Assembly: GCA_001788495.1 (NCBI GenBank)
Contig: MGCF01000006.1
Location: forward strand, 2,106-66,105
DNA from: Candidatus Rokubacteria bacterium RIFCSPLOWO2_02_FULL_73_56
Lineage (GTDB): Bacteria > Methylomirabilota > Methylomirabilia > Rokubacteriales > CSP1-6
DNA length: 64,000 nucleotides
Direction: 5' to 3'
Below, in pieces: positions 1 to 38,322 of the stretch. The notes under the pieces were generated by a model. It was not told where the DNA came from, searched no databases, and saw only the letters and a list, made by a program, of their open reading frames with translations. The translations under genes were made by a program, and so were the position numbers. Each line of letters starts with the position of its first letter. Position 1 is the first letter of the stretch.

Positions 1-1514
1 CCCGCCGCGGCGAGGCGCGCGCTCAGATGCTCGGAGGCGGCGACCGAGCGGGTGCCGACGAGAATCGGTCGTCCCTGCCCGTGGAGCGCGGCGATGCGCT
101 CCACCACCGCCCCCCACCTCGCCTCCGCGTCCCGATACACTCGGTCGGCATGCCGCCGCCGGCGGAGAGGCCGGTTGGTCGGGATGGACACGACCGGCAG
201 CCGATAGACCGACCAGAGCTCGGCCGCGGTCTCACGCGCGGTCCCGGTCATGCCGCACAGCATGAGATAGCGCCGGAAGAAGCGCTGGTAGCTGATGCGC
301 GTGAGCGCGTCGTGGCGCGCGCTGAGGGGGCATTCCTCCTTGACCTCGATGAGCTGGTGCAGCCCATGCTCCCACGAGCGGTCCGACATGAGACGCCCGG
401 TGTACTCGTCGATGATCTGCACCTTCCGGTCGCGCACGATGTAGTGCAGATCGCGGTGGAACAGGTGCAGCGCCGTGAGGGCCTTGGTGACCAGCTCCTC
501 CCGCCGGCGGCGGCCGGTCCACACGCCGCCGAGCGGCGGCGCGTTCTCGTCGAGCCGAAGCATGCCCGACTCGGTCAGCCGTGCCGCACGATCCTGCTCG
601 TCGATCGCGAAGTCGAGGCCGGGCGTCAGTCGTGACGCCAGGGCGAGTGCCGTCGAATAGAGGCGGCGCTCGCTCGCGGCGCCGGCGGCGCCGCCGCCGG
701 AAATGATCAACGGCGTGCGCGCCTCGTCGATCAGCACGCTGTCGGCCTCGTCGACGATCGCGTAGCTGAGCCCGCGCAGCACCAGCCGGCCGGCGCGGGC
801 GTCGTCGCCCGCGAGGCGCTCGAGCTGGAGCAGGGTGCGGCTGGCACGCGGTCCCAGAGCCAGCCGGTCTCGCAGGTAGTCGAACGCCACTTCCTTGTTC
901 GTGACGTAGGTGACGTCGGACGCGTAGGCGGCGCGCCGGTCCGCATGCTCCATCCCGTGGACCACGACACCGACCGTGAGCCCGAGCCCCCGATAGACCG
1001 GGCCCATCCACTCGGCGTCCCGGCGCGCCAGGTAGTCGTTGACCGTGATGACGTGGACCGGAATGCCGGCGAGCGCCGCCGTGCACGCGGCGAGCGTCGC
1101 GGTCAGCGTCTTGCCCTCGCCGGTTTCCATCTCCGCGACCATGCCGCCGAGCAGCACGCGTCCACCGACCAGCTGGACGTCGAAGTGACGCTCTCCCAGG
1201 GTCCGTTCGGCGACCTCCCGCACGAGGGCGAAGGCGCGGGCGACGAGATCGTCGACGAACCGGCGCGCGCGGAGCTCTCGACCGAGCCGCTGGGCCGCCG
1301 CGAGGATCGCGTCCTCGCCGAGCGTCGCGATCCCGCCGCCGTGCCGGTCGACGAGCGCGGAGAACCGCATCCAGCGTGCCCTGCGCACCGCTCGGTGACG
1401 CAGCAGGGGCGCCACGGCCCGAGCGGCAAGACGATCGAGGGCCCCAGGCGGACGCTCGCTACGCTCCGGATAGGCGCCGAGCGGGACCTCGGGGTGGACC
1501 GCGAGCCTAGACAT
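1..1514 (-). CDS. SecA-family preprotein translocase ATPase paralogue (divergent, possibly accessory SecA2-like). 5' partial within the window; the gene continues past coordinate 1.
   Basis: Reverse-strand translation from the ATG at 1512-1514 gives 'MSRLAVHPEV...ERHFDVQLVGGRVLLGGMVAEMETGEGKTLTATLAACTAALAG...VTNKEVAFDYLRDRLA...YAIVDEADSVLIDEARTPLIISG...LCGMTGTA...VVSIPTNRP...GRPILVGTRS', i.e. SecA Walker A, DEAD-box and preprotein cross-linking motifs. There is no stop before the window edge, so the ORF tool did not list it. Its ATG overlaps the TAG of the upstream M50-HlyD gene (ATGTCTAG). Confidence 0.8.
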   Translation of the reverse strand, partial: MSRLAVHPEVPLGAYPERSERPPGALDRLAARAVAPLLRHRAVRRARWMRFSALVDRHGGGIATLGEDAILAAAQRLGRELRARRFVDDLVARAFALVREVAERTLGERHFDVQLVGGRVLLGGMVAEMETGEGKTLTATLAACTAALAGIPVHVITVNDYLARRDAEWMGPVYRGLGLTVGVVVHGMEHADRRAAYASDVTYVTNKEVAFDYLRDRLALGPRASRTLLQLERLAGDDARAGRLVLRGLSYAIVDEADSVLIDEARTPLIISGGGAAGAASERRLYSTALALASRLTPGLDFAIDEQDRAARLTESGMLRLDENAPPLGGVWTGRRRREELVTKALTALHLFHRDLHYIVRDRKVQIIDEYTGRLMSDRSWEHGLHQLIEVKEECPLSARHDALTRISYQRFFRRYLMLCGMTGTARETAAELWSVYRLPVVSIPTNRPLRRRRHADRVYRDAEARWGAVVERIAALHGQGRPILVGTRSVAASEHLSARLAAA

Positions 1515-3654
1515 TGAAGCGCGAGAGGAAGAGCTGCCGGACCGTCCGGTACCACTGCAGGGCGAGCGGTCTCGAGCCGTGGTCGAAGCGCACGTACGCG
1601 CGGCCGCCGACGTTGAGCCGGAGGGACCGAGCCGCAAGCTCGACGTCCACCTGAAAGACCTTCTGGGTCGCCGTGACCCCCTTCGGGTCCCGCGGATCGA
1701 CGACGATCTGTCCTCCGCCAGCGCTGCCGAGCGCCGTCGTCGGCAGCCGCTCGCTCGCGGCCGGCACGATCCGGCGGAGCGTGGCGGGAACCGTGTCGGC
1801 GAGGCTCTCGGCGAGGCGCACCTCCAGCCCCACGGTATGGAAGCGGACCAGATCGATCGCGCCCTGGGGCACGGCGGCCCGGATCGTGACCGTGGCGAGC
1901 TCGACCACGTAGGCCAGCTGCTCGCCCTTCTTGACGAAGCGACCCGGCAGGTCCTCCGGCGTCGGCACGATGAACGCGCCCGCCGTGCCGCTGCGAACCG
2001 TCAGGGCCTCGACGCGCTCCAGCGCCTGGCCCAGATCTTGCCGCGCGTACCGCAGATCCTTCTCGATGATCTCGGCCTTCACCCGATCCACCGGGCGCTG
2101 CTCGTCGTAGCGCGCCTGGAGCTCGCGGACGCGCGCCCTGAGCATCGCCACACGGACGCCCAGATCGGAATCCCTGAGCACGATCAGCGCGTCGCCTTGC
2201 CGCACCCGGGAGCCCGACGACGCGACGAACCGCTCGACGAACCCGTCGGTGCCGGCCCGGACGAGCGACTCCTCCGGAATCCAGACCACACCCTCGACGA
2301 CGCTGCGATACGGGACCGGCGCCAGCGTCACCACGCCGACGGCGGCCGCGACGGCCGCGCCCGCGACGGCGAGCGCCCGCGCGCGGTGCTTGCGGAGGCG
2401 CGGACTCGCGAAGAGAAACCGCGCCCCCTTGCCGATCGGAACGCCGATCCAGCCGACGGCCGTCAGGCCCGCGAAGAACATCGCCAGCCAGAAGTACCGG
2501 TCGGCGATGAAGGCGATGATGGCGATCACCACGAGCACCCGGTAGGCGAAGGAGGCCGCCGCGTAGGCCACGAACCACGCACGCTCGCCGGCCGTGGCCA
2601 CGGCCAGCTCGGCCTCACGCTGCCCGAACAGGTAGCGTTCGCAGAGATACCCGAGGTACTTGTTGGACCGCTGCCGCAGGTTCGGAATCTCCAGGAGGTC
2701 GCCCAGGATGTAGTAGCCGTCGTACCGCAGCAACGGGTTTGCGTTGAAGAAGATCGTGGTGACCCCCGCGATCAGGATCACGTTGTAGGTGATCACGCGG
2801 AGCAGCCCGGCCTCGACGCTCAGCCAGACGTAGAGGGCCAGGGCCGCGAGGAACAACTCCACGGTCATCCCCGCGGCGCCGACGGCGATGCGCCGCCACT
2901 TGCTGCGGAACGCCGAGGCCGACGAGGCGTCCACGTACGGCACGGGCGTCATCACGAGGACCATGACGCCCATGTCGTGGACCTCACCACCGAATGCCTT
3001 CGTCGTGTAGGCGTGACCGAGCTCGTGCAGCGCCTTGATCAGGGGGAAGAGCAGCCAGATCGTGAACAGGGCCTGCATGGAGAACAGGCGATCGAGGGTG
3101 TCCCGGGTCAGGTCCGTCCAGTACACGCCGGCGAGGACGAGTGCCGGGAGGACGACCAGGACCCAGGCGACCGCCCCCGCCGGGCCGACGAGGGGTCTGA
3201 CGAGCGGGACCGTCGCTGCGAGGAACCGCTCGGGGTCGAGCAGCCGCATGCGCCACGAGAAGAAGCTGGAGACCCGGCCGAGCCACCTCCTCCGCTGCTG
3301 GCGTTCGTACCGCTCCAGCAGGTCCGCCGCGTCGGGCGGGACATCGGACTGGAGCACGTCGCTCGCGTGGAGCTGGCTCAGGAGCTGGATGACGTCCTCC
3401 TGGGTCGGGCCGTCGTCGCCCAGGCGCTCGCAGGCCGTTTCCCAGAGCTCCTGAACCGTGCGCCGGCCATCCATGAGCCCGATCACCAGATACGCCTGCG
3501 GGGTGAAGCGGTGAAAGCGCTGGCCGGCGCGGTCCTCCAGCACGTACCACGTCTTGCCGCGGTACCGGTGGCGGTGGATGTGCGCGTGACTCCTGAGCCG
3601 CGGCTGGAGCTCGGCGACCCGGTACCAGGAGCTGCTGAAGAGCGGTTGCGTCAC
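1507..3654 (-). CDS. Tri-domain membrane protein: N-terminal PqqD-like peptide-binding (RRE) domain, peptidase M50 (site-2 protease, HExxH) and C-terminal HlyD-family periplasmic adaptor.
   Basis: N-terminal 'RFTPQAYLVIGLMDGRRTVQELWETACERLGDDGPTQEDVIQLLSQLHASDVL' matches the PqqD/RRE pattern. Multi-TM core with 'LIKALHELGHAYTTKAFGGEVHDMG' (HExxH) and 'NPLLRYDGYYILGDLLEIPNL' is typical of M50. The C-terminal coiled-coil plus beta-barrel ('RYARQDLGQALERVEALTVRSGTAGAFIVPTPEDLPGRFVKKGEQLAYV') is HlyD-like. Start taken as the GTG at 3652-3654 immediately after the upstream gene stop; an internal ATG start is possible. Confidence 0.7.
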   Translation of the reverse strand: MTQPLFSSSWYRVAELQPRLRSHAHIHRHRYRGKTWYVLEDRAGQRFHRFTPQAYLVIGLMDGRRTVQELWETACERLGDDGPTQEDVIQLLSQLHASDVLQSDVPPDAADLLERYERQQRRRWLGRVSSFFSWRMRLLDPERFLAATVPLVRPLVGPAGAVAWVLVVLPALVLAGVYWTDLTRDTLDRLFSMQALFTIWLLFPLIKALHELGHAYTTKAFGGEVHDMGVMVLVMTPVPYVDASSASAFRSKWRRIAVGAAGMTVELFLAALALYVWLSVEAGLLRVITYNVILIAGVTTIFFNANPLLRYDGYYILGDLLEIPNLRQRSNKYLGYLCERYLFGQREAELAVATAGERAWFVAYAAASFAYRVLVVIAIIAFIADRYFWLAMFFAGLTAVGWIGVPIGKGARFLFASPRLRKHRARALAVAGAAVAAAVGVVTLAPVPYRSVVEGVVWIPEESLVRAGTDGFVERFVASSGSRVRQGDALIVLRDSDLGVRVAMLRARVRELQARYDEQRPVDRVKAEIIEKDLRYARQDLGQALERVEALTVRSGTAGAFIVPTPEDLPGRFVKKGEQLAYVVELATVTIRAAVPQGAIDLVRFHTVGLEVRLAESLADTVPATLRRIVPAASERLPTTALGSAGGGQIVVDPRDPKGVTATQKVFQVDVELAARSLRLNVGGRAYVRFDHGSRPLALQWYRTVRQLFLSRFNV

Positions 3655-3659
3655 GGGCG

Positions 3660-5417
3660 CTACGGGAGCCAGGCCCAGAGCTTCAGCCGGAGCCAGTCGG
3701 CGGCCTGGCGTGTCCAGATCCAGACGAGCAGGTGCCGCCCGGACACGATCTTGCCGACCCCCTCCATGCCGGGCCGGAGACGCTGCGGCGCCCGATCGAG
3801 TCTCGCCTCCACGCGGAAAGAATTGCGCCCGTCGCGGGCCGTCGAGACGGGCGTGATCTTCGTCACCGTGAACGGCAGCGCGTCCGATGGCCAGGCAGTC
3901 AGGAGGAGCTGGCCTCGCTGGCCCACGGCGATGTCGGCGATGTCGCGCTCGTCGACCTCGAGCACCGTGCGGTAGCCGGCCAGCGGCGCGACCTCGAAGA
4001 GGGTCTGGCCCCGCTCGATCGGGGCGCCGAGCGACTGGCTCAGGTCTCCGGTCACGACGACGCCGTCGAACGGCGCCACGACGTGGGTGCGGGACAGATG
4101 ATCGTCGGTCAGGGCGAGCTGCGCCCGCGCCTGGTCGGCCTGGGCGCTCGCGATCTGGAGCGCGGCGGCGTCCCCCTTGGCACGGGCCTGGTCCCGCTGG
4201 CGGCTCAGCTGCTCGAGCTGGCCCTGCCACCTCGCCCGTTCGAGCCTGAGCTCGCGGTCGTCGAGCACCGCGAGCACCTGCCCCTCACGGACGGCGTCGC
4301 CGGCGCGGACCGGCGCGTCCTTCAGATAGCCGCTGAACGGGGCGACCGCGGCGATGCGCGTGCTCGGCTCCATCACGCTCCGGGCCGACACGCGGTAGTC
4401 CCCCTCGGCCAGCGCCAGGAACAGGCCCAGGGCCGTGAGCCCCGCCACGGTGAGCTTGAGTGCGGTATGCCGCGGACCGATGAGATGGCCGAGGTGGCGC
4501 AGTCCCACCTGGACCGCCTTCTCGATCAGCCAGCGATCGTCCCGGCGCTGCACCTCCAGCACGGGACCCGCGACGGCCGCGAGCGCCTCGCAGAACTCCA
4601 CCGTCGCCCGATCGAACGGCCGGTCGGCCCCCCGCTCCAGGGTCAGCGCGCCGACCACACGCGCCCCCTCCGCGAAGAGGACCGTGCAGATCGCCCCGGC
4701 GTTGGACTGCCGCGCCAGGTCGGCGTGGGCCCCGGTCACGCGCGCCTCGGCCCCCGGCGGTTCCGGGTAGACCACCGTCGCGCGCTGGTCCAGGGCCTCG
4801 TCCATCGCGGCGCCGATCGCGCGGATCAGATTCGTCTGCTTGGCGAAGTTCGCCGTGTGGGAGACGGCCCGCGGGTGCATCCGGCCGCGCTTGAGGAAGC
4901 CGACGCTCACCCGGTCGCAGCCCAGACGCGTGGCCAGAGTCGTGACGAAGGTCGTCGCCGCGCCGTAGAACCGCTCGTGGCCGAGGCTGCTCGTGACCAG
5001 CTCGAGGACCGTCTGCAGCCGCTGCTTCGACGCCTCGACGCTCCCCGGATCGAGCTGCGCGGCGCCGAGGCGGTGCACCAGCACCTCGAGCCAGCCGGCG
5101 CCCCACTGGAGCTGGCGCAGGACCCCTTCCAGCTCCGCCTGGGGCCGGGGTGCGATGTCGAGCGCGACGACGCCGTGCACCCGCCCGTTCGCCTGGATCG
5201 GATACGCGACGTCGTAGCGCTCACGGTCCCGCACCGACGCGTCCGTACCTGCCTCGCGCTTCAGGACGATACCGCGCCGCTCGGCGAGCGCACGCTCCGC
5301 GGCCTCGGCCAGATGCGCCGCGGCGCGAGAGCCTTCCGGCCAGAAGGCCGCCGGAGCGAACTTGCCCGTGGTCGGAGAGGCGGCGACGACGACGCCCCGG
5401 CCGACGCCCGGGATCAT
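3660..5417 (-). CDS. GAF-domain-containing HlyD-family membrane-fusion (periplasmic adaptor) protein. The true N-terminus probably extends upstream (see the in-frame TAA finding).
   Basis: N-terminal 200 aa have GAF-like composition, followed by one TM helix ('LKLTVAGLTALGLFLALA'), then HlyD-like biotinyl/lipoyl, coiled-coil and beta-barrel segments ('APFSGYLKDAPVRAGDAVREGQVLAVLDDRELRLERARWQGQLEQL...VVAPFDGVVVTGDLSQSLGAPIERGQTLFEVAP'). The 53 codons between 5417 and 5577 are open, protein-like and in the same frame. Confidence 0.7.
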   Translation of the reverse strand: MIPGVGRGVVVAASPTTGKFAPAAFWPEGSRAAAHLAEAAERALAERRGIVLKREAGTDASVRDRERYDVAYPIQANGRVHGVVALDIAPRPQAELEGVLRQLQWGAGWLEVLVHRLGAAQLDPGSVEASKQRLQTVLELVTSSLGHERFYGAATTFVTTLATRLGCDRVSVGFLKRGRMHPRAVSHTANFAKQTNLIRAIGAAMDEALDQRATVVYPEPPGAEARVTGAHADLARQSNAGAICTVLFAEGARVVGALTLERGADRPFDRATVEFCEALAAVAGPVLEVQRRDDRWLIEKAVQVGLRHLGHLIGPRHTALKLTVAGLTALGLFLALAEGDYRVSARSVMEPSTRIAAVAPFSGYLKDAPVRAGDAVREGQVLAVLDDRELRLERARWQGQLEQLSRQRDQARAKGDAAALQIASAQADQARAQLALTDDHLSRTHVVAPFDGVVVTGDLSQSLGAPIERGQTLFEVAPLAGYRTVLEVDERDIADIAVGQRGQLLLTAWPSDALPFTVTKITPVSTARDGRNSFRVEARLDRAPQRLRPGMEGVGKIVSGRHLLVWIWTRQAADWLRLKLWAWLP

Positions 5418-5576
5418 CCCGCACTGGAGACCGAGCCAGTTCCGGTAGAAGGCCTCCGGCGTCGCCGCCTCGGCGAACTCGCGCCAGAGGGCGTCGAAGG
5501 AAGGCTCCCTGGGGCCGACGCCGCTCAGCGGCGGCGGCGGCGTGATCGGACGGTGGACCTCGACCAGGGCCGGCTC

Positions 5577-5915
5577 TTACGACGCCGCCGGCGCGTCGGC
5601 CTGCGCTCCCTCGACCTGGACGGCGCCAAACCGGGCTTCATGTTCCCGCAACACGTTGGCCAGGAGCGTCGACAGCCGCTTGGCGACGAACGGGTTGAGG
5701 ATGAGTCGGTCGGTGAGCTGCACCGTCACGTCCTTCTGCCCGGCGTGCCACGCCTGGTTGATGCCGAAGAGCAGGACGACCTCCTCGCGCGTGCTCGCGA
5801 CGTTGCAGACGTTCGAGTACGAGCTCTTCATCCGGGAATCGTCCCACTTGATGGTGAGCTGCTGGGCCGTGCGCTCGGGCCCGGCCACAGCTTCGCGTTC
5901 ACGCTCGTCCGCCAT
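5577..5915 (-). CDS. DUF3467-like small protein (copy 1), 112 aa.
   Basis: 'MADEREREAVAGPERTAQQLTIKWDDSRMKSSYSNVCNVASTREEVVLLFGINQAWHAGQKDVTVQLTDRLILNPFVAKRLSTLLANVLREHEARFGAV...' carries the YSN / EFV.L.FG / R.IL.P..AKRL / YE..FG signature I associate with DUF3467. It is in the same frame as the downstream GAF-HlyD gene, separated by one TAA. Confidence 0.65.
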   Translation of the reverse strand: MADEREREAVAGPERTAQQLTIKWDDSRMKSSYSNVCNVASTREEVVLLFGINQAWHAGQKDVTVQLTDRLILNPFVAKRLSTLLANVLREHEARFGAVQVEGAQADAPAAS

Positions 5916-5944
5916 ACCGTCTCCTCTCCTCCGCGCAGCGGGTC

Positions 5945-6892
5945 TCAGCTCGATGGGGTCCGGGTCAGTATGCCCGGCGGCCGCGGAGCCTCGGCCGCTC
6001 GAATGGGCACGAGCTCCGCGGCGTGCCACCCGTACCTCGCCGCGTAGGCCGCGTTGAGCCCCAGGCACCGCGTCGAGCTGCACGCCTCGCGATGCACGCA
6101 CTGGTAGAAGCCGTTGCGCCGGAACTCGGTCCAGAAGGCGGGGTCGATGAACAGCCGCGGCTGCGAGTTGTCGAGCGTGTCCCCGTCCTCGCCCAGCAGG
6201 CAGTGCGGAAAATTCTTGACCATGACGCCACGGTCGAGCGCGTGGCATCTGGCGATCGCCGTCCTCAGGAAGGGGAGCACCTCGAGGTGGGATGCGCCCA
6301 GCTCCTTGACGTCCTGCTCGTTCATGGCGAAGTAGACCCAGAACTCGTGCTGGACCATCCGCCGCAGGTGTCCGAGCCGGTCGACGAGCCGGGGCAGATG
6401 CCGGTAGCTCTTCACCGTGACGACGGTGTTCGTGAGGGTCGCGACGCCCGGCAGCGCGTCCAGGTTCTCCAGGCCCCGGAGGGTCTTGTCGAACGATCCC
6501 GGCACTGTCGTGATCGCGTCGTGCGTCTCGGCGTCCGCGGCGGTGACGCTCACGAAGAACTCGTCGACTCCCGCGTCGACCAGCTCTCGGCAGTAGGCCT
6601 CGCTCGCCAGGCGCATCCCGTGCGTCTGGATCCGCACGTGCTCGAAGCCCCTCCGCCGCGCCTGTCTGGCCAGCTCCGGCAGGTCACGCCGCAGCGTGAT
6701 CTCCGCCCCGGTGAGGATCAGACCCGTCCACCGTCGGTGCGTCGCGTTGTAGTCCAGGAGCTGCTCGAACCGGCTGAGCGACTCCGGCTCCAGCCGGTCC
6801 ATGGTGTCCTCGATCATGCAGTGGACGCAGGCCAGATTGCAGCGGAACTCCAGCGTCATCGACACGTAGCGATCGTCGTCAAACCGTCCCAC
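5945..6892 (-). CDS. Radical SAM enzyme with a C-terminal auxiliary Cys cluster (SPASM/twitch-like), a putative peptide- or protein-modifying maturase.
   Basis: 'RCNLACVHCMIED' is the CX3CX2C 4Fe-4S/SAM motif at residues 18-25. The C-terminal 'HCLLGEDGD...YQCVHREACSSTRCLGLN' Cys cluster suggests a second Fe-S site. Length 315 aa. Confidence 0.75.
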   Translation of the reverse strand: MGRFDDDRYVSMTLEFRCNLACVHCMIEDTMDRLEPESLSRFEQLLDYNATHRRWTGLILTGAEITLRRDLPELARQARRRGFEHVRIQTHGMRLASEAYCRELVDAGVDEFFVSVTAADAETHDAITTVPGSFDKTLRGLENLDALPGVATLTNTVVTVKSYRHLPRLVDRLGHLRRMVQHEFWVYFAMNEQDVKELGASHLEVLPFLRTAIARCHALDRGVMVKNFPHCLLGEDGDTLDNSQPRLFIDPAFWTEFRRNGFYQCVHREACSSTRCLGLNAAYAARYGWHAAELVPIRAAEAPRPPGILTRTPSS

Positions 6893-7235
6893 GGGGCTTC
6901 CCTTCCCTCTCGGCTCGAGTCGCCGGGGACCCTGCGCCCTCGAACCGCGCCTCGTACTCCGCGACCACCCGGCCGAGCAGCACGGCGAGCCGCTTCGCGA
7001 CCGGCGGACTCAGCACGATCCGCTGGCCGAGATCGACGACGAGCTCCTGGCGGTCGGTCCGCGAGGCGCGGCTCACGCCGAACGACAGGACGAACTCCGC
7101 GTCGCTGGTCGATACGTTGCACTGGTTCGCGTGCATCCGCCTGGCGCTCGCGTCGTCCCAGCGGACCCGGGCGGCGCCCGAGCTCACGGCTTCGTCCCCG
7201 TGACCAGGAAGAACGGCGTCTCGAGGTCGATCCAC
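6879..7235 (-). CDS. DUF3467-like small protein (copy 2), 118 aa.
   Basis: 'VRWDDASARRMHANQCNVSTSDAEFVLSFGVSRASRTDRQELVVDLGQRIVLSPPVAKRLAVLLGRVVAEYEARFEG' is paralogous to copies 1, 3 and 4. It overlaps the rSAM start by 14 nt and the O-MT stop by about 50 nt. Confidence 0.6.
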   Translation of the reverse strand: MDRPRDAVLPGHGDEAVSSGAARVRWDDASARRMHANQCNVSTSDAEFVLSFGVSRASRTDRQELVVDLGQRIVLSPPVAKRLAVLLGRVVAEYEARFEGAGSPATRAEREGKPRGTV

Positions 7236-8275
7236 CGGACGTCGACGCCGCGGAACCCGAGTGCGCCGAGCTGATCAACGTACGCCGCCGGCGAGCGAAA
7301 CGAGCGGAAGAACAGCAGCAGCGGGATCATCGCGTATGACGGCGCGCCGGTCGCGACCGGTCCCCGCTCGAAGATGAGGAGCGTTCCCCCGGGCTTCAGC
7401 GCCTCGCTCGCCCGGACGAGCAGACGCCTCGCGTCCCGCTCCGGCCAGTCGTGCAGCATGGACTTGAACGATACCAGATCGCGCCCGCCGGGCAGCGGAT
7501 CGGTCAGCGCGTTCCCCCGGACGAAGTCGATCCGCGCGCCTTCGGGCTCGCGCTCCACGTGTGCGCGGCCGATGTCGCACACCACGGGCAGGTCGAACAC
7601 CGTCGCCGTGACCGCCGGGTACCTCCGACAGATCCGGAGCGCGAATTCCCCGCTGTTGCCGCCGACGTCCAGGACCCGCTCGTGGCCCCCGAAGTCGTGA
7701 TGCTGCAGGCACACCCCGGCCTCGTACTTCGTGAGACACGTGGTGATGCGCATCCACCGTCGGGTCGCCTCGTAGTCCTCGGCGCTCGCCCCGAGCGCCC
7801 GGTCGTAGGAGAACAAGCGAAAGGTGCGGGCCTGACGCCGGAACGTCTCGGGGTCCCGGATCGCCGCCGTGAACAGGTCCGTGAAGTCCGGCAGCACCAG
7901 CGCGGCGTACTCGAGCTTCGTCTCGAGCAGGTCACGGAAGCGGAGGGCCCTCCGGAAGTCCTCGCTCAGCGCGACGCCTCGCGGCCGTTCCTCGACGACG
8001 CGGTTCGTCCGGAGCAGGTCCAGCAGCAGCCGCAGGCCGCGGCCGTCGCCCGGGAACCCCGTCGCGAGATCCGCGACGGCCATGGCCTCGTGGGCAGCCA
8101 GCCGGTCGATCACCCGGAGCTCGAACGCCGTCTTCAACGCCCGTGCGTCGATCAGGGTCGTGAGAAAGCCGTCGACACAGAGGTACTCCCGCTCGTCTGT
8201 GGGCTCCATGGACGCCGCCGGCGGCGGGCCCACCGCGAGGCCCCGAGCGCGGTCGGTCACGTCAAAAGACTCCAT
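7184..8275 (-). CDS. Class I SAM-dependent O-methyltransferase (plant-type OMT fold, dimerisation domain plus MT domain).
   Basis: 'ERVLDVGGNSGEFA' is SAM-binding motif I, and the C-terminus is OMT-like. Start taken as the ATG at 8275 ('MESFDVTDR'), which overlaps the upstream gene by 14 nt; the ATG at 8209 ('MEPTDEREY') is an alternative. Confidence 0.7.
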   Translation of the reverse strand: MESFDVTDRARGLAVGPPPAASMEPTDEREYLCVDGFLTTLIDARALKTAFELRVIDRLAAHEAMAVADLATGFPGDGRGLRLLLDLLRTNRVVEERPRGVALSEDFRRALRFRDLLETKLEYAALVLPDFTDLFTAAIRDPETFRRQARTFRLFSYDRALGASAEDYEATRRWMRITTCLTKYEAGVCLQHHDFGGHERVLDVGGNSGEFALRICRRYPAVTATVFDLPVVCDIGRAHVEREPEGARIDFVRGNALTDPLPGGRDLVSFKSMLHDWPERDARRLLVRASEALKPGGTLLIFERGPVATGAPSYAMIPLLLFFRSFRSPAAYVDQLGALGFRGVDVRWIDLETPFFLVTGTKP

Positions 8276-9134
8276 AATAGGCGCTCTTGAGGAACACCAG
8301 CCTGCCACCCTCCATACGGTAGTCGATCCCGACATCGTACAGCATGTGGCTCAGACTCGGCCGGTTCCTTTCGACGAACGACACGATCGCTTCCGGATAC
8401 GCCAGCCGCCGCAGGAAGAAGAGGAACTGATCCACGTCAATCCCGACGAAGTAGACGGCATCGTTCCGCTTCTTGTTCGCCACCACGATCACCCGGCACT
8501 TCTGCAGCTCCGGCCACAGGATCTCCTCGATCGGCACCCGCGTGGCGTCCATGTACGCGGAACACCCGGCCTTGTCCTTGATCTCCGCGAGCTGCGAGCG
8601 CGCGTCGAAGAAGAAGTAGAAGTTCTCGAGGGCGGTCCCGCGCTTCGTCAGCGAGTAGCAGATGCCCCCGGAGACCGTGCTCCCGGGCGTCCCGACATAC
8701 ATGTGGATCTCGTCCAGGGAGGCCGTCCCCGTCAGCAGCGACGGGCCCACGTCGAGCGAGAACATGAAGTACGGCAGGCGCTCGTTGACCGGGACGTCGC
8801 AGCGCACCCGAGGCCGGAGCGCCTCGGCGACTCGCGTGATGGAGCGCGTGCGCTCTCGGCGCCGATAGTCGTAGAAGTAGAGCTCCCAGCGCAGCTCGCC
8901 CCCGATCCACTTGACTCCGAAGACCGTCTTCGACACGCCGATCGCCTGCCGGAGGAGCGGCACCAGGTCGAAGCATTCCTCTCCCACCCCCGCGACCTCG
9001 AACGACCGGAACAGCAGGTTCACCGATCGAAACTTGCCGCCCGGGGGCGCGACCGGCTCGTACTCCCACAGGCAGAAGTCCTGCAGCGTCTCCCCCTCCG
9101 CCGCGTACTCGAGGCGCTCGTCGAGCGTCTTCAT
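8262..9134 (-). CDS. Hypothetical protein, 290 aa, aromatic/Lys-rich and markedly lower GC than its surroundings; distant paralogue of the C-terminal domain of the upstream gene.
   Basis: 'MKTLDERLEYAAEGETLQDFCLWEYEPV...NFYFFFDARSQLAEIKDK...FVGIDVDQFLFFLRRLAYPEAIVSFVERNRPSLSHMLYDVGIDYRMEGGRLVFLKSAYYGVF' has real-protein composition. Its ATG overlaps the upstream gene's TGA (ATGA at 9131-9134). Local GC is roughly 58% against about 72% elsewhere. Confidence 0.65.
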   Translation of the reverse strand: MKTLDERLEYAAEGETLQDFCLWEYEPVAPPGGKFRSVNLLFRSFEVAGVGEECFDLVPLLRQAIGVSKTVFGVKWIGGELRWELYFYDYRRRERTRSITRVAEALRPRVRCDVPVNERLPYFMFSLDVGPSLLTGTASLDEIHMYVGTPGSTVSGGICYSLTKRGTALENFYFFFDARSQLAEIKDKAGCSAYMDATRVPIEEILWPELQKCRVIVVANKKRNDAVYFVGIDVDQFLFFLRRLAYPEAIVSFVERNRPSLSHMLYDVGIDYRMEGGRLVFLKSAYYGVF

Positions 9135-10252: not shown

Positions 10253-10345
10253 CGGGGCCCTCCGCGCCCGACGGGTCGGCGGGGCCGACGCCGCCGCGTC
10301 CGCTCCTACCCGCCTCCACCGCCGGGATCAGTCTCCCTCGACACG

Positions 10346-31300: not shown

Positions 31301-34285
31301 GTGCTTGTCGGTCACCTCGGAGACGACGTCCGTCATCTCGGCCTTGACGCTGACGCCGTCGGCCGTGATCGTCGCGTCGCCGATGTGGGCGGAGTTCGTC
31401 ACGAGGGCGACGTTGATGGCCACCGCGGCCGCGATGCCCGTGCCGGCGTTGGCGACCGTCCCGTCGGCGGTCGCGCTCGCGTCCACGTTCTCGGAGGCCT
31501 GGACCGTCAGGGCGCCGTCGGAGTCGATCGTGACGCCGTCCGCGATCTGGGCGCGCGCCGTCGCCTTGGCGACGTTCACGGCGATCCCCGCGGCCACGCT
31601 CACGTTGTCGTTGTCCTGGTTCTGGGCCTTGGCCTTGTCGTTGCTGCTGTCCGCGCCCGAGGCGTGGCTGCCGCTGCCGCGGTTGGCGCTGGCCTGGGTG
31701 TTGCCGAAGTCCCGCTGCTGATTGCTCTTCTGCTGGGCGTTCTTCCCGCTGGAGTCGCTGCCCTCGCCCTCCCCGCCTTCCGCGCTCGCCTTGGCCTCGG
31801 CCAGGCTCTTCGAGCGCCCCTTGGCCTTGAACCGTGTCGCCCCGCCGGTGGTGACGCTGCGCGTCGTCTCGGACACGACCGTGTCCTGCGCCCAGCCGAA
31901 GGCGATCGCCACGCCGACCGCGACGTCGGTGCCGACGGCCTTGCCCTCGGCCTTCGTGCTGACGTCGCTCGTGCCGCTGGCGTCCGCGAGCAGCTCGCCC
32001 CCGACCACGAGCGCCGGCTGCAGCGCCGTGCCCTGGATCTGGGTCGCCGTGTCGAGGGTCACGACCGAGACGGCGACGACCGGCGCGATCGCGTTCCCGC
32101 CGGCTCCGCCGCCCTTGGCCTCGGTCTCGATCGTGTGGGTCGCCGTCGCCGTGAGGTGCACGTCGTCGGCGTCCGTGAAGACGACGCCGGAGCCGATCGT
32201 CGCCTTCGTGTCGTTGTCGGCGACGGTGAGCGCCACCGAGGCGCCGACGCCCGTGCTCTTGCCGGCGTCGTCGTCGCCGTCGTCGTCGTCGATGCTCGCC
32301 TCGGCCCTCGCCGTGATGTGGGTCGTCGACTCCGCCAGCAGCGTCAGGCTGCTGCCGTTGAGGTCGACCGTCGCCGCGGGGTCGACCAGCGCGTAGACGT
32401 TCGCGATCGTGACGTTGATCGCCAGCGCCCCGGCGAGCGCAAGGCCCGACGACCCCCCGCTCGCCCCGGACTTCGCGGTCACGTCGAAGTGGCTGTCCGG
32501 CATCACCGCGTGCACGGTGATCCCGTTCGGCCCGTCGAGGCTCGGGCTGCCCGTGAGCCACGCCTTGACCTCGACGACGTGCACGCCGATGCCGACGCCG
32601 AGGCCCACGCCCTCGGGGTTGTTGTCGGTCGTCGAGCCGTCGCCGATCGTGGCGATGTCGTAGGTGCCGCTCGCGGTGAGGCCGATCGTCGTGTCCGAAG
32701 TGATCGTCGCGTCGTCGATCTCGGCCCACGTGTGGCCGGTGATGACCGACACCGCGACGGTCGCGGCGAAGTTGACGTTCCCCTCGCCCGTCGCGGCCCG
32801 ATCGCTCGTGTCGCTGTCGTCGTTCGGGTCCTTGAGCCGCTCCTTGGACGTCTGCGAGCCGTCGTCGGCGTGGTCCTTGGCGCCCTTGGGCGACGCCTTC
32901 GCCGTCGTGTCGACGGTCCGGCTGGTGGTGGCCGCGATCGCGACCGAGCTTGCGTCGATCGAGGTCGTCGCGTCGCTGATCACGACTTCCGTGTCGCCGA
33001 AGACCACGCTCACGGCGACGATGGCGCCCGCGGTGCTCGAGTTGCCGAGCGTGCCGTCGGCCGTCGTCGTGAGGTGGACGGTGTTCGTCGCGTCGATCGT
33101 CGCCGCCCCCGTCGCCACCAGGTCCGAGTCGTTGTGGACGGTGACCGTGGCCGAGCTGCTGACGACCGCGACCGCGAACGAGGCGTCCGTCGTGGTTTCG
33201 GTGTTGTCCTTGCTGCCGTCGGTCGGATCGGGCTTCCGCGCGAGCGTGAGGCTCGGCATGCTCGACGTGGCGTCGATGTCGATCGTGCCGGTCGCGGCGA
33301 GGTCCGCGTTGTCGAGGTCCACGGTGGCGGACGAGAACAGCAGCAGCTCGCTGAAGTTGACCTTCCCGTCGAGCTTGCTGGCGGTGTTGATCGTCACCGT
33401 TTCCTGGCTCAGGGCCAGGATCGTGATGTCGTGACCGCTGATCGTCGAGTTCGTGACCGTGACCTCGGCGGACGGCAGCTGCAGGAAGTCGGCCGAGTCG
33501 GCGTCGCCCGTGACGGTGCTGGGCTTCCCCGCGTTGAGCGTCACGTCGTGCGCGCTCAGCGTCGTGCCGGTCATGTGGATCGTCGAGTCGGACTCGACGG
33601 TGAGATCCTTGCCGCCGGTGAGCGTGAACGTGCTGGCGGCGACCTCGATGTCGCTCGAGCTGTGGAACCGGAGGTTGAAGCCGACGCTCGTCGGGCCGGT
33701 GCCCTGCAGGCGGAAGAGATCGTTGCCGATGCCCGGGATGACGCCCTCGAGGAACGAGATGTCCTTGCCGCCCACGAAGTCGATGTCGAGGAGCCCGCCG
33801 TCGCCGCTCACGAAGGTCGCGAGCGCGGGCAGGTCGAACGAGTCGAGATCGATGCGGATCGTGTCGCCCCGGAGGTCGCTGTTGGTGTCCCCACCGTCGC
33901 GCTGGATGACGACCTGGTGCTCCCCGGCGTTGTCCAGCACGGCGGAGGCGAGGACGTTCCCGAGGTTCCCCGTCTCGCGCAGCTCCAGGATCGGGTCGGA
34001 GCCGCTCAAGTCCGCGACCAGCGTCATGTCGGCGACGAGGCTGAGCGTCGGGTACGTGAGGTTCGCGGACAGCAAGAGCCGCGGCTCCAGCGTCTCGAGC
34101 GCGAACGCCTGGCGCTGCCGCGCGAGGTCCGCGAGACGCGCCCACCGGCGGCCGGCACGGCGCCGCTGGGCGCCCTGCGCGTAGATCGATTGCATGAGGC
34201 GATGGAAAAAGAGCTCGGCGATCGTGCGGACACGCGAAGCGCGCCGACGCGGACGGGACGGACGGGCGTCGAGCAGCGTGGTCAT
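10346..34285 (-). CDS. Giant (7,979 aa) extracellular repeat/adhesin-like protein with N-terminal LEPR-XLL-type motif, about 45-aa beta-repeat arrays, RTX calcium-binding repeats, two LamG-like domains and a C-terminal metzincin zinc-protease domain.
   Basis: Single uninterrupted ORF with coherent Thr/Ser/Gly/Ala/Val/Asp-rich repeat composition. N-terminus '[74 protein letters not shown]' has no hydrophobic signal peptide. The internal 'GGxGxDxUx' nonapeptides, LamG-like blocks and C-terminal '[22 protein letters not shown]' (HExxHxxGxxH plus Met-turn) are listed as separate features. The long antisense ORFs across it (9134..20083+, 23297..28243+, 28277..35887+) are artefacts. Confidence 0.9.
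   Translation of the reverse strand: [7979 protein letters not shown]
10349..11020 (-). other. C-terminal metzincin-type (matrixin/M10-like) zinc metalloprotease domain of the giant protein.
   Basis: '[33 protein letters not shown]...[28 protein letters not shown]' shows HExxHxxGxxH followed by a Met-turn. HELGH maps to about 10765-10777. Confidence 0.6.
11100..12180 (-). other. Two tandem LamG/concanavalin-A-like lectin/glucanase domains in the giant protein.
   Basis: Two about 180-aa blocks of beta-sandwich-like sequence, '[20 protein letters not shown]...[36 protein letters not shown]...FDNVQVQV' and '[22 protein letters not shown]...[36 protein letters not shown]...FDNVTIKT'. Approximate coordinates. 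Confidence 0.5.
12460..14910 (-). repeat. RTX/hemolysin-type calcium-binding nonapeptide repeat region of the giant protein (approx. residues 6460-7275).
   Basis: Multiple 'GG.G.D.L.G' runs, e.g. '[41 protein letters not shown]', '[31 protein letters not shown]', '[50 protein letters not shown]', '[31 protein letters not shown]'. Coordinates are approximate, from residue counting. Confidence 0.7.
34064..34090 (-). other. LEPRLLLSA motif (LEPR-XLL-type N-terminal sorting/recognition motif) at residues 66-74 of the giant protein.
   Basis: Direct read of the translation. I recall the motif as the signature of a named N-terminal domain of giant repetitive proteins whose function is unknown. Confidence 0.6.
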
Positions 34286-34628
34286 TTGAGGCTCCCTTGG
34301 AGAGCGAGCAGAGGCAGGGCGATGAGACGAGAAACCCGCGGATGCGAGTGCCAGCGCCTCCCGGAAATCACCTGGGCGGTTCTCCTACGGGCTAGCGAGC
34401 GACGCCACGGGTTGTGGCGGCGCCACTCTCGGACCAAACCTGTGCGTTGTCAAGGGCCGTTCTGCTGGCACCCGGGGCATTTCCGGAAGGCCCGCCGGCC
34501 CAGGTCAGGAGGCGTGCCTCCGGGTCACCGCCACGCCCCTCCCCCGATGACGCGAATTCCGGGCGGTGCGATCATGGCCCTGGCTCCCCGGTCATGGCAA
34601 GACGACAGGCCGTCCAGGCGCCGGCCCG
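34286..34628. promoter_or_regulatory. Divergent intergenic/promoter region between the giant-protein operon (minus) and the glycosyltransferase gene (plus).
   Basis: About 340 nt non-coding, the only sizeable gap upstream of a roughly 34-kb co-directional gene string. No motif could be assigned with confidence; a TGGCAC-containing stretch at about 34464 does not have correct sigma54 spacing. Confidence 0.35.
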
Positions 34629-35645
34629 ATGACGGCGGCAGACGCGCGGCGGGTGGTGCTCGTCGCTCCACCGTACGGCTGGCTGCGCGGCGAAGTGCCG
34701 AGACGCTGGCTCTCGGGACGCGGCGTCGACGCCGTGCTGCTCGCCCATGCCTCGCCGCAGTTCGGGGTCCCCGGCGCGATGGACGCCATCGAAGCCCTGG
34801 CGCGGAGCGCCCCTGCGACGTGGCACTTCTACCCCTTCCCGCACGACGAGTATCTGATCGACACGCTCCAGGCGCGCGGCCACCGGGTGCTCGTCGGCCT
34901 CGACGACGACTACTGGCACCCGAGCCCCTGGCATCCCGTCGGACCCCGGCTGGACAGCCTCCCAGACCTCGAGGCGCTGCTCGCCGCCGCCGACGGCCTG
35001 GTCGTCACGACGGAGCCGCTCGCCGGGATCGTCGCGCGCTTCAACGCCAACGTCGCCGTCGTGCCGAACGCCCTCGACCTCGAGGCGATGCCGGCGGCCC
35101 GCCCGCCACGGGAGGGACGGGCCAGGCGGGTTGGATGGAGCGGCTGGCCGGGACACCGGGGCGACACGGCCCTCCTCGAGGCGCCGCTGCGCGCGCTGCT
35201 CGCGGAGGACCCGGAGCTCACCTTCGTCGTGGCCGGCGAGCTACCGGCCTGGGCGGTGGGCGAGGCCCGGGTGGAGCGCGATACGCGCCTGCTCCCTCCG
35301 CTGGCACACTACCGGCGGCTCGCGCGGCTGGAGATCGATCTGTTCGTCGCGCCGCTGGTCGAGCACCCGTGGAACGAGGCGCGGAGCCTGCTGAAGGCCC
35401 TCGAGGCGGCCGCGCTGGGACTCCCGATGATCGTGTCCGACGTGGGCCCGTATCGCGCCGTGCCCGCGGATGTCGCGCTGAAGGTTCCGAACACCGCGGC
35501 GGCCTGGCGCGCGGCCCTCGAGCGGCTGATCGCCGACGCCGCGCTGCGGAGGGCGCTCGCCGGGCGCGCGCTTGCATGGCTCCGAGAACACCACACGATC
35601 GACACCACCGGTCCGCTCTGGCGGGCGGCGCTCGCCGCCGTGTGA
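34629..35645 (+). CDS. Glycosyltransferase, GT-B fold (family 1/4-like).
   Basis: C-terminal 'LLKALEAAALGLPMIVSDVGPY' resembles the GT1/GT4 donor-binding motif. Rossmann-like 'RRVVLVAPPYGW' at the N-terminus. Start at the ATG at 34629; a GTG at 34566 is an alternative. Confidence 0.6.
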   Translation: MTAADARRVVLVAPPYGWLRGEVPRRWLSGRGVDAVLLAHASPQFGVPGAMDAIEALARSAPATWHFYPFPHDEYLIDTLQARGHRVLVGLDDDYWHPSPWHPVGPRLDSLPDLEALLAAADGLVVTTEPLAGIVARFNANVAVVPNALDLEAMPAARPPREGRARRVGWSGWPGHRGDTALLEAPLRALLAEDPELTFVVAGELPAWAVGEARVERDTRLLPPLAHYRRLARLEIDLFVAPLVEHPWNEARSLLKALEAAALGLPMIVSDVGPYRAVPADVALKVPNTAAAWRAALERLIADAALRRALAGRALAWLREHHTIDTTGPLWRAALAAV

Positions 35646-35676
35646 CGGCCCGCGTTGGGGGGCCGGCGCGCGCGGC

Positions 35677-35988
35677 TCAGCCCGGCAGCGCCCCGAACCG
35701 CGCCTCGTACTCCCTGAGGATGTTGGCGAGCAGCGCGGAAAGCCGCTTGGCCGCCATGGGGCTCAGAATGATCCGGTCCGTGAGCTGCACCGGGATCTCT
35801 TTCTGGGCGCTGTGCCAGGCCTGGTTGATCCCGAACAGGAGGACGACCTCCTCGCGTGTGCTCGCGACGTTGCACACGTTCGCGTAGGAGCTCGTCATGT
35901 TCGAGTCGTCCCACTTGATCTGAGGCTGGGCCTGCGCCTGCCCGGCCGGCCGCGGTGACGGGGTCTCTGCGCTCCGTTCGTTGGCCAT
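35677..35988 (-). CDS. DUF3467-like small protein (copy 4), 103 aa, near-identical core to copy 1.
   Basis: 'IKWDDSNMTSSYANVCNVASTREEVVLLFGINQAWHSAQKEIPVQLTDRIILSPMAAKRLSALLANILREYEARFGALPG'. About 85% aa and about 87% nt identity to 5577..5915 over roughly 250 bp. Confidence 0.65.
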   Translation of the reverse strand: MANERSAETPSPRPAGQAQAQPQIKWDDSNMTSSYANVCNVASTREEVVLLFGINQAWHSAQKEIPVQLTDRIILSPMAAKRLSALLANILREYEARFGALPG

Positions 35989-36115
35989 CGGTTCTCCTCG
36001 TCGAGGGTCGTCCGCTCGATGGTGACAGGCTGAGCGTCCCCTGCAGGGTACTCCGGAGGCCGAGCCGCGCGCAACCGCAGAAGGCGTCGAGGACGGAGGG
36101 TGCGGGTTCGCCGGC

Positions 36116-37141: not shown

Positions 37142-37160
37142 GACTCGGGCGATGGGCGCG

Positions 37161-37847: not shown

Positions 37848-37895
37848 AGGGCTTGAAATCGGCGGGCGGGCTGACGCACCCTCTGGGGGGACGCC

Positions 37896-38297
37896 ATGAG
37901 CAAGCGAGACCTCTACGTCGTCGCCGCCGATCGGAAGGACCTCTACGAGCTGCTCCGGAAGCAGTTCGCCGGCAACGACAGCGTCGAGATCATCCTGGAC
38001 CGCCGCAAGGCCGAGCGCCGGCGCGGCGGCGGCGGCGTCGCGCCGGACAAGCGCAGGAGCGACCGCCGCGTCCGCGACGACGCCTACCTGCTGAAGACGC
38101 TCGGCGTCGTGCTGGTCTCGGTCGAGCGGGACGAGCCCGCCCGCCCGGCGGCCCCCCCCAGGGCCGCCGCCCCCGCCAGGGCGGCCGGCCCCACGAAGGC
38201 GGCGGCCGCCAGGCCCGCCAGGCCCGCCCGACCCGCCAGGCCCGCCCGAGCCGCGAAGGCCCGCCGGGCCGCCAGGCGCAGGAAGCGCCCCGGGTAG
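37896..38297 (+). CDS. Hypothetical small protein with Arg/Ala/Pro-rich C-terminal tail.
   Basis: N-terminal 'MSKRDLYVVAADRKDLYELLRKQFAGNDSVEIILDRRKAERRR' is protein-like. The overlapping frame 37853..38338 is Arg-junk. Confidence 0.4.
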   Translation: MSKRDLYVVAADRKDLYELLRKQFAGNDSVEIILDRRKAERRRGGGGVAPDKRRSDRRVRDDAYLLKTLGVVLVSVERDEPARPAAPPRAAAPARAAGPTKAAAARPARPARPARPARAAKARRAARRRKRPG

Positions 38298-38322
38298 CGC
38301 GGCGCGGGCTCCGCCGCGCCGC

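Follow-up and report, generated by a model that had tools for sequence, protein, structure and literature searches.

What do the genes that follow an open reading frame (ORF) encoding 7,979 residues do for its product? The question is raised by a 64,000-nucleotide stretch of Candidatus Rokubacteria bacterium RIFCSPLOWO2_02_FULL_73_56 (GenBank assembly GCA_001788495.1, contig MGCF01000006.1, positions 2,106 to 66,105; hereafter the window), in which the minus strand carries a gene for a giant protein with an LEPR-XLL motif and, behind it, genes for DUF3467 proteins, modification enzymes, two proteins with HlyD-type adaptor domains and a SecA-like ATPase. A sequence-only reading of the window had proposed an undescribed sorting and secretion system. 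Judging from gene neighborhoods and domain content, the locus probably specifies a leader-guided, envelope-spanning machine that exports LEPR-XLL giants and cleaves their leaders, with the 7,979-residue protein as its candidate cargo. From the earlier proposal we retain the core module, its association with LEPR-XLL giants and the lack of a described match, and we infer export and cleavage from them; the maturation enzymes, and a secretin that it had thought possible, drop out as general parts.

The PqqD-M50-HlyD protein encoded in the window has more than 6,400 relatives in 90% clusters and 4,297 representatives at 50% identity (E ≤1e-30), the best 150 of which are all about 715 amino acids long. 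A scan with one genome per species found the module to which it belongs in at least 571 species, including Methylomirabilota, Nitrospirota, Acidobacteriota, Planctomycetota, Myxococcota, Desulfobacterota, Alpha-, Beta- and Gammaproteobacteria and one Flavobacteriales metagenome-assembled genome (MAG). The closest homologues are from Rokubacteria/Methylomirabilota. To count synteny, we used 80 loci from different species with flanks fetched up to 10 kb; individual loci are cited by number (L001 and so on). Directly upstream of the M50-HlyD gene lay a GAF-HlyD gene in 69/69 loci, and directly downstream a SecA-like gene in 70 of 71. The next gene encoded a small adaptor of about 275 amino acids with a signal peptide in 54/61 loci. 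GAF-HlyD, PqqD-M50-HlyD, SecA-like and small adaptor genes are a fixed module across phyla. The same operon was found in six assemblies of the source population, where it runs past the window edge with a 274-residue HlyD-type adaptor and then stops. All genes named in the sequence-only reading are present, and its list lacked this third adaptor, which lies outside the window.

The module is linked to giant genes. A very large repetitive gene was adjacent in 39 of the 80 loci, and in 20 of the 28 with full 10-kb flanks. Among 48 loci with at least 4 kb of upstream DNA, 23 had a same-strand ORF of at least 1,094 codons ending within 3 kb of the GAF gene, after removal of two spurious cases. These ORFs were rich in Gly, Asp and Thr, and most had passed 2,000 amino acids where the fetched 10 kb ended. 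In other loci, the very large gene was downstream of the module or convergent with it. Since proteins of more than 2,000 amino acids account for about one per thousand bacterial genes, this adjacency is far above chance.

The adjacent giants share an N-terminal motif. All 18 with a readable N-terminus carry LEPR-XLL, at about residues 30-100; they include neighbors whose N-terminus lies in the fetched DNA upstream (L005, L024) or downstream (L025, L043, L050, L064, L066) of the module. In these fetched neighbors, whose leaders were included in an alignment of ten, a basic leader runs into the pattern F-x-x-LE(P/Q)R-x-LLSA(D/N/T). Six-frame translation of the 80 loci (2.0 million residues) contained a strict form of the motif six times, each time at residue 33-81 of a giant gene, compared to 0.15 occurrences per replicate in shuffled sequence.

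In a plasmid collection of 72,556 records, 13 carried the module, all from Alphaproteobacteria, and each of the 11 plasmid or chromid records examined had a gene of 4,033-12,737 codons directly upstream of it. Ten of these giants, from cultured rhizobia, roseobacters, Methylosinus and Thalassospira, have a readable N-terminus with an LEPR-type motif: those of Methylosinus sp. C49 (LEPRVLLNAD), Mesorhizobium ciceri R30, Rhizobium johnstonii TP5, R. beringeri TP6, Rhizobium sp. WSM1274, Sinorhizobium chiapasense (LEPRYLLSAD), Pseudosulfitobacter (FEPRVLLSAD), Alisedimentitalea (motif just 5′ of the start called by the Prokaryotic Genome Annotation Pipeline, PGAP), and Thalassospira and Pontibrevibacter, both named 'LEPR-XLL domain-containing protein' by PGAP. 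As a limited reverse check, the N-terminal 140 residues of the Mesorhizobium giant matched six plasmid records, all six among the 13 module carriers. The N-terminal 200 residues of the Thalassospira and Pontibrevibacter giants gave only self matches among the plasmids, and a metagenome scan with the LEPR leader confirmed two loci, neither of them informative. The sequence-only reading had named co-occurrence as a check on its proposal, and the outcome is positive in full-flank loci, in plasmid records and at the readable N-termini.

Annotation can conceal the motif. On the Alisedimentitalea scapharcae plasmid (L097 726-830), the in-frame segment VEQLEPRLLLAADFT lies just 5′ of the PGAP start of an 8,148-residue 'calcium-binding protein' (WP_343211605.1). 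Since that start lies 3′ of the motif, the LEPR-XLL leader of the protein has been cut off by the annotation, and the same start-codon error may hide the motif in other records.

The giant of the window, which was also called at 7,979 amino acids in the source population, consists of a basic leader, LEPR-XLL, LktA-type 53-residue repeats (LktA_tand_53, 292 bits), RTX repeats (HemolysinCabind, 76.5 bits) and a C-terminal M10-like HExxH region. Its LEPR-XLL segment (NCBIfam NF012209, 27.2-30.1 bits against a cut-off of 17; residues 61-82) contains FALETLEPRLLLSANLTYP. Hydropathy analysis found no hydrophobic core in the 60-residue Arg-rich leader that precedes it and no hydrophobic segment in the first 300 residues of the protein. 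The candidate cargo has no Sec- or Tat-type signal. Both hydropathy and the NF012209 score agree with the earlier description of an Arg-rich leader that runs to the LEPR motif in place of a Sec signal peptide. A C-terminal secretion signal was not recognizable from the sequence of the giant, and RTX motifs were absent from the adjacent giants of L010, L023 and L035. A Vibrio giant has the same LEPR-XLL/RTX/serralysin layout (PMC10868602).

The C-terminal ~1,400 residues of the giant are 38-52% identical to proteins encoded directly upstream of the module in nine distant loci (L006, L026, L031, L034, L037, L038, L039, L061 and L068). We considered this region as a specific link to the module and rejected it, since its homologues, nearly all fragments without N-termini, have mixed contexts (the module is present in L084 and absent from L083 and L085). 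In two gammaproteobacterial giants (L025 9669-12653, L043 15671-22144), LEPR-XLL is immediately followed by a DUF4347-like segment (...VFVD..PDYQ.LVDDL...); DUF4347 is also at the head of a Richelia giant with no module nearby (L085). A SapC-family gene adjoins giant RTX-type genes in two unrelated organisms, Alisedimentitalea (L097 1058-1855, with the module) and Richelia sinica (L085 14263-14973, without it).

We examined the core components using profile searches, and Pfam and NCBIfam bore out every domain named in the sequence-only reading, with the PqqD domain marginal and M50 recognized by its motifs. In the PqqD-M50-HlyD protein, PqqD (PF05402) scored 24.7 bits against a cut-off of 23.4 at residues 41-100, a match that is precomputed for many homologues, and HlyD_3 scored 31.5 bits. 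Although Peptidase_M50 (PF02163) reached only 22.1 bits against the Pfam cut-off of 27.2, both catalytic motifs are intact: the metal-binding motifs HELGH (210-214) and NANPLLRYDG (304-313) are invariant, with HExxH in 80/80 and NxxPxxxxD in 79/80 loci. The M50 part is most similar to the leader protease of daptides, which are ribosomally synthesized and post-translationally modified peptides (RiPPs), at scores below the cut-off of that family (daptide_HExxH, NCBIfam NF041824, 164.3 bits against 300); RiPP_HExxH_LiaK scored 35.4 against 225. Hydropathy predicts a cytoplasmic N-terminal domain with a PqqD-like fold, seven transmembrane segments and a periplasmic adaptor. PGAP naming is inconsistent: M50-adaptor proteins appear as 'hypothetical protein', 'PqqD family protein', 'biotin/lipoyl-binding protein' or 'peptidase M50', and a number of components as 'efflux RND transporter periplasmic adaptor subunit'.

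The GAF-HlyD protein (GAF 40.7 bits, HlyD_3 64 bits in Pfam) is predicted from hydropathy to have a cytoplasmic part of ~370 residues containing the GAF domain, one transmembrane segment (372-390) and a periplasmic adaptor. HlyD_3 and HlyD_D23 domains occur in two proteins of the window and in the 274-residue protein just outside it. Behind the TAA that ends the adjoining DUF3467 gene (5577-5579), conserved coding sequence of GAF-HlyD continues in the same frame, as it does at L001 8080-8094 and L003 6483-6497. In these three sequences, no ATG, GTG or TTG precedes the conserved GAF-protein motif LW..FAEAAT..F..WL.LQC. The sequence TAAGAG, with a CTG six bases on (5567-5565 in the window), is conserved in three Rokubacteria, and this CTG is likely the start of GAF-HlyD. 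The junction implies either a CTG start with a Shine-Dalgarno-like AAGAG or readthrough of the TAA to give a DUF3467-GAF-adaptor fusion. In one population variant (L091 10499-12256), the GAF-adaptor gene is split into ORFs of 103 and 472 codons, through either an assembly error or a natural frameshift.

The SecA-like ATPase of the window matched SecA_DEAD (336 bits) and SecA_PP_bind (91 bits) in Pfam. All NCBIfam SecA and SecA2 models scored below their cut-offs, and the best curated model, PRK12904, gave 472 bits against 814; these scores are lowered by truncation of the gene at the window end. A full-length relative aligned only to residues 16-603 of Bacillus subtilis SecA, a span that covers nucleotide-binding domains (NBD) 1 and 2, the preprotein cross-linking domain and only the start of the scaffold helix. 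Missing from the protein are the wing domain, two-helix finger and C-terminal tail, and Pfam found no wing or scaffold domain. The short form is constant in size (median 663 amino acids; 645-667 in 63/65 complete ORFs), and the ATPase motifs GEGKT and DEAD are kept in 62/65. The SecA paralogue of the sequence-only reading is thus present, but as a 663-residue short form that ends near B. subtilis residue 603 rather than as a full SecA. In RefSeq, these proteins are labeled 'prepilin peptidase', 'DEAD/DEAH box helicase', 'translocase' or 'preprotein translocase subunit SecA'; examples are L095 22222-24138 (Methylosinus sp. C49), L100 22186-24147 and L104 2785-4770. Two operons, L103 27607-46572 (Thalassospira marina pCSC3H3) and L053 7618-10574, have no SecA-like gene and keep the LEPR-XLL, DUF3467, GAF-adaptor, M50-adaptor and small-adaptor (and TolC) set; they form a SecA-less subtype.

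We also looked for an exporter and an outer-membrane partner. The operon contains no ABC exporter, and the ABC ATPases encoded at 38323-39555 and 41108-41848 are not of the exporter type. Across the related loci, an ORF of at least 600 codons with Walker A and LSGGQ motifs, the size expected of the ABC protein of a type I secretion system (T1SS), occurred within 10 kb in 2/80. A TolC/OEP gene follows the module in 11/61 loci and stands at the operon ends of Methylosinus and Thalassospira; where an outer-membrane partner is encoded in cis, it is TolC. The sequence-only reading had suggested that the 228-residue secretin-domain protein of the window could be the outer-membrane component. This protein has a signal peptide and a partial Secretin match (profile positions 17-127 of 169). 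We rejected it for this role, since no homologue was found in 82 related loci.

The four DUF3467 (PF11950) copies of the window scored 77, 56.7, 48.2 and 80.9 bits against a cut-off of 25. DUF3467 proteins are ~100 amino acids long and conserved over their whole length across phyla, with no variable core. They were encoded in 42/65 related loci, in 36 of the 42 directly upstream on the same strand, and absent from 23/65; DUF3467 therefore holds its proposed place in the gene set as a frequent member, but not as a universal one. The gene usually comes right after the cargo gene. In two Bradyrhizobium MAGs (L056 14361-22139, L078 14178-22138), giant and DUF3467 genes lie together on the opposite strand, convergent with the module, such that DUF3467 stays with the cargo gene and not with the machine genes. 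Since the gene stays with the cargo, is fused to another domain in the window and ends in a TAA followed in frame by the GAF protein, DUF3467 would fit an adaptor or chaperone that touches both the cargo and the GAF protein. We found no relatives of DUF3467 with a solved structure. The fourth copy, which lies outside the operon, is the closest paralogue of the module-linked copies in relatives, and its link to the system is uncertain.

In the most far-reaching reading of these components, the chances of which we consider even, they make up a new type of protein secretion system of diderm bacteria. A SecY-independent truncated SecA motor and an M50 protein bearing a RiPP recognition element (RRE) would replace the ABC exporter, read LEPR-XLL, pass proteins of up to ~12,700 residues through a three-adaptor/TolC conduit and remove the leader, with DUF3467 bound to the cargo and able to recruit modifying enzymes. 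For the export machine that we regard as probable, we propose the following steps. The cytoplasmic PqqD-like (RRE) domain of the M50-adaptor would recognize the cargo leader, as in RiPP pathways. The SecA-like ATPase, which has kept motor and preprotein clamp and lost the SecY-docking parts, would feed the unfolded chain into an inner-membrane assembly to which the M50 domain contributes seven helices and the GAF protein one. Three HlyD-type adaptor domains, in the M50 protein, the GAF protein and the small periplasmic protein, would form a periplasmic conduit to a TolC-family channel. The leader would be cut off at the M50 active site, the GAF domain may gate the machine on a small-ligand signal, and DUF3467 would be a small cytoplasmic adaptor or chaperone associated with the cargo. 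In this lineage, a cassette of radical-SAM, O-methyltransferase, 290-residue and DUF3467-fusion genes might add a modification step.

We favor transport because three adaptor domains and TolC are parts of an envelope-spanning conduit, because ABC proteins of T1SS size are so rare near the module and because the SecA-like ATPase keeps the clamp that holds polypeptides. Two further points argue the same way: the pairing of RRE and M50 is otherwise known from leader-peptide removal, and the cargo has no Sec- or Tat-type signal.

Several observations weigh against this model. All of the support comes from gene neighborhood and domain content. PqqD clears its threshold only marginally, and the score with the daptide-protease model stays under the cut-off. 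The translocation path is conjecture, since the SecA-like ATPase has no two-helix finger and, to our knowledge, M50 proteases are not known as protein conduits. The SecA-like gene is missing from the Thalassospira and L053 operons, indicating that the motor is not always encoded in cis, and no outer-membrane or TolC gene was found in the window. No giant was adjacent in 8 of the 28 full loci, and the close relative L002 has the core without a giant. Two adjacent large genes (L062, L065), with unclear starts, have no LEPR motif, while homologues of the C-terminal region of the giant also occur in loci with no module nearby (L083; L085, Richelia). For DUF3467, the confidence of structure prediction was low (pLDDT 51-53). 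Finally, RTX repeats such as those of the cargo are typical of C-terminal-first type I secretion.

This last point leads to the main rival explanation, in which an ordinary type I system (ABC exporter and TolC) with genes elsewhere exports the giant C-terminus first. The module would then act only on the N-terminus, keeping the LEPR-XLL leader at the inner membrane until a signal sensed by GAF triggers its cleavage, so that the adhesin is retained or released, as LapG and LapD control the retention and release of LapA. The RTX repeats lie near the C-terminus of the cargo and are found in many adjacent giants, M50 enzymes are proteases rather than channels, and GAF is a sensor domain. This explanation would also accommodate operons without SecA and a window without an outer-membrane gene. 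However, three adaptor domains, and TolC in cis in 11 loci, would be superfluous for a pure protease switch, and nearly all loci (70/71) have the SecA-type motor. The genes of giant RTX adhesins usually neighbor those of their ABC exporters, and exporters of T1SS size are almost never adjacent to the module. On balance, we regard retention and release as unlikely.

The remaining explanations are less likely than this one. The GAF domain could also be the sensor of a regulated intramembrane proteolysis pathway, in which the M50 protein is a site-2 protease that controls expression of the giant gene and neither transports nor cleaves its product. Cleavage of anti-sigma factors is the classical activity of M50 site-2 proteases, but no sigma/anti-sigma pair is conserved in the loci. 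As this pathway also leaves unexplained the HlyD fusion, the SecA-like motor, the small adaptor, TolC and the strict link to the N-terminal motif of the neighbor, we find it quite improbable. We give still less credence to a RiPP-like pathway unrelated to the giant, with DUF3467 proteins as precursors that are modified by the radical SAM enzyme and methyltransferase, cleaved by the RRE-M50 protease and exported by the adaptors. Although the window contains four DUF3467 copies, both tailoring enzymes and a protease related to that of daptides, a conserved protein with no variable core that is missing in 23/65 loci makes a poor precursor, tailoring genes occur in only ~5/80 loci, and the adjacency of LEPR-XLL giants is left unexplained. 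Equally hard to credit is efflux, or export of a lipid or polymer, with the giant adjacent through co-regulation or island structure rather than as substrate. HlyD adaptors and TolC also serve small-molecule pumps, in keeping with the PGAP efflux names, but the module includes no conserved gene for an RND, ABC or MFS transporter. The preprotein cross-linking domain of SecA and the RRE point instead to a polypeptide substrate, and the adjacency of giants holds over at least seven phyla and on plasmids.

How does the proposed export machine compare with known systems? The type I systems for giant RTX adhesins (LapA with LapBCE and LapG/LapD; SiiE with SiiCDF) are alike in the one-step export of a very large, repeat-rich, Ca-binding surface cargo, in the HlyD-type adaptor and TolC-type channel, in a cargo gene beside the machine and in a protease that acts on the N-terminus of the cargo. 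Here, a SecA-like ATPase of truncated form, together with the adaptor-fused M50 protease, stands in place of the ABC exporter, there are three adaptor-domain proteins rather than one, and the conserved recognition element is the N-terminal LEPR-XLL rather than a C-terminal signal. Unlike the periplasmic LapG, the protease is intramembrane and has an RRE. The RRE-M50 proteases of RiPP pathways (daptide NF041824; YydH/LiaK) similarly join a PqqD-like domain to an intramembrane HExxH protease and, as in this window, adjoin radical SAM and methyltransferase genes. In contrast, the protein described here scores 164 bits against the daptide cut-off of 300 and continues into a periplasmic adaptor, most loci have no tailoring enzymes, and the presumed substrate has 1,000 to 12,700 residues instead of being a short peptide.

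Accessory SecA2 systems (SecA2/SecY2 of Gram-positives, mycobacterial SecA2) also use a second SecA paralogue for a few unusual, often very large surface proteins. However, SecA2 models score below cut-off for the ATPase of the window, the 663-residue family has no wing, two-helix finger or C-terminal tail, and in place of SecY2 or Asp genes its partners are adaptors and TolC in diderm bacteria. PEP-CTERM/exosortase, LPXTG/sortase and GlyGly-CTERM/rhombosortase likewise pair a short tag on many unrelated surface proteins with a dedicated membrane protease, but here the tag is N-terminal and the enzyme is an M50 protease, accompanied by an ATPase motor and a conduit that would span the envelope. 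The nearest earlier observation is that giant Omnitrophota and actinobacterial proteins hold SecA DEAD and preprotein-binding domains without scaffold or wing, for which a role in export was proposed; there, the SecA domains are inside the giant itself, and no M50, adaptor or LEPR-XLL components were reported (10.1101/2023.11.21.568195). None of the core components is covered by an NCBIfam model; every match stayed below its cut-off. In the full-text literature searched, which leaves out most subscription journals, we found no paper that combines these components; DUF3467 and LEPR-XLL are mentioned there only in passing.

We next describe the layout of the window (Table 1). Since its G+C content of 70-77% crowds raw ORF lists with spurious frames, the coding frame of each stretch was picked using third-position G+C (GC3) together with ORF calls. 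As proposed in the sequence-only reading, all of the genes from the giant to the SecA paralogue lie on the minus strand with small gaps and overlapping junctions: intergenic gaps are at most 159 nt, genes overlap at five junctions, and no terminator-like site was found inside any gap of the array. The one promoter-like site is 285 nt upstream of the ATG of the giant gene. Rfam searches for an RNA element or riboswitch in the 5′ region of this gene gave no match.

Table 1. Features of the window, with strand and the evidence for each call
Feature	Position	Strand	Evidence or remark
SecA-like ATPase, first 504 residues	<1..1514	-	gene runs off window end
PqqD-M50-HlyD, 715 aa	1507..3654	-	ORF call, Pfam/NCBIfam
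GAF-HlyD	3660..5576 (first ATG 5417)	-	Pfam, junction analysis
DUF3467, 112 aa, copy beside core module	5577..5915	-	Pfam PF11950 77 bits
Radical SAM enzyme, 315 aa, optional cassette	5945..6892	-	Pfam Radical_SAM 70 bits
DUF3467 second copy, 102 aa, divergent, optional cassette	6879..7187	-	PF11950 56.7 bits; also called in source population
Class I SAM-dependent O-methyltransferase, 363 aa, optional cassette	7184..8275	-	Methyltransf_2 90 bits, Dimerisation 31 bits
290-aa protein, no family match, optional cassette	8262..9134	-	ORF call
DUF3467 with 270-aa C-terminal domain without family, 373 aa, optional cassette	9131..10252	-	PF11950 48 bits (48.2), residues 6-85
Giant candidate cargo, 7,979 aa	10346..34285	-	GC3 and ORF call; NCBIfam/Pfam domains
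LEPR-XLL motif, residues 61-82 of giant	34040..34105	-	NF012209
Promoter-like site TTGCCA-18-CATGAT, upstream of giant gene	34571..34600	-	consensus match only
Group 1 glycosyltransferase	34566..35645	+	Pfam Glyco_trans_1_4 35.8 bits
DUF3467 fourth copy, 103 aa, outside operon	35677..35988	-	PF11950 80.9 bits
Secretin-domain protein, 228 aa	37161..37847	-	Pfam Secretin 43 bits

The sequence-only reading had counted the radical SAM enzyme and O-methyltransferase as part of the pathway. The radical-SAM, methyltransferase, 290-residue and DUF3467-fusion genes recur together in only ~5/80 loci (L001, L003 in part, L013, L053 and L057), in two of them on the opposite strand, and are thus an optional cassette rather than core. 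Radical SAM homologues lie beside the module only in L001, L003, L053 and L057, and the best NCBIfam match of the enzyme was HxsC4 (97 bits, below the cut-off of 500). O-methyltransferase homologues were found in L001, L013 and L053. Homologues of the 290-residue protein, 57-72% identical, lie beside the module in L001, L013, L053 and L057; full-length homologues of the DUF3467 fusion are in L001, L053 and L057. Neither the 290-residue protein nor the C-terminal domain of the fusion matched Pfam, NCBIfam, PHROG or PDB, and no relation between the two was detected. A prenyltransferase-like barrel, considered for both because they are strand-rich with aromatic repeats, received no support from tests.

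Upstream of the giant gene are genes for a glycosyltransferase, the fourth DUF3467 copy, a Zn-dehydrogenase and the secretin-domain protein. Homologues of the glycosyltransferase, 70-72% identical, lie beside the module in the two closest relatives (L001 6672-7697, L003 4795-5784), together with a TPR protein, and this enzyme is possibly a lineage-specific companion. The GC3 of the genes downstream of the giant (1-10250) is 0.83-0.93, compared to 0.96-1.0 for neighboring housekeeping genes (36000-45000) and 0.97 for the giant; this mild difference could reflect a horizontal origin of the module. Just beyond the left edge of the window, right after the last gene of the operon, there is a 265-codon ORF on the opposite strand (L086 17816-18613) with a faint LAGLIDADG match. 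A GGDEF diguanylate cyclase gene (48614-49996, plus strand) and a MoxR-type AAA ATPase/DUF58 pair (52956-55268, minus strand) lie 14-20 kb from the giant gene.

For proteins of 5,000 to 12,000 residues, the route of export is understood only in type I ABC systems and in a few cases that resemble autotransporters. LEPR-XLL is curated in NCBIfam without an assigned pathway, no function is known for DUF3467, and SecA paralogues that lack SecY-docking elements have been noted only in passing; if the proposed export machine is real, one gene set would account for all of these. It would also be a new class of engine for tripartite adaptor/TolC machines and would tie RiPP-style leader recognition to protein secretion. 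Genetically tractable carriers include Mesorhizobium ciceri R30, Rhizobium johnstonii TP5, Ensifer adhaerens and Methylosinus sp. C49. As carriers of the module include nitrifiers (Nitrospira), methanotrophs, roseobacters, Burkholderiales, sulfate reducers and rhizobial symbiosis megaplasmids, its giant adhesin-like cargo is likely to be relevant to biofilms, symbiosis and particle attachment.

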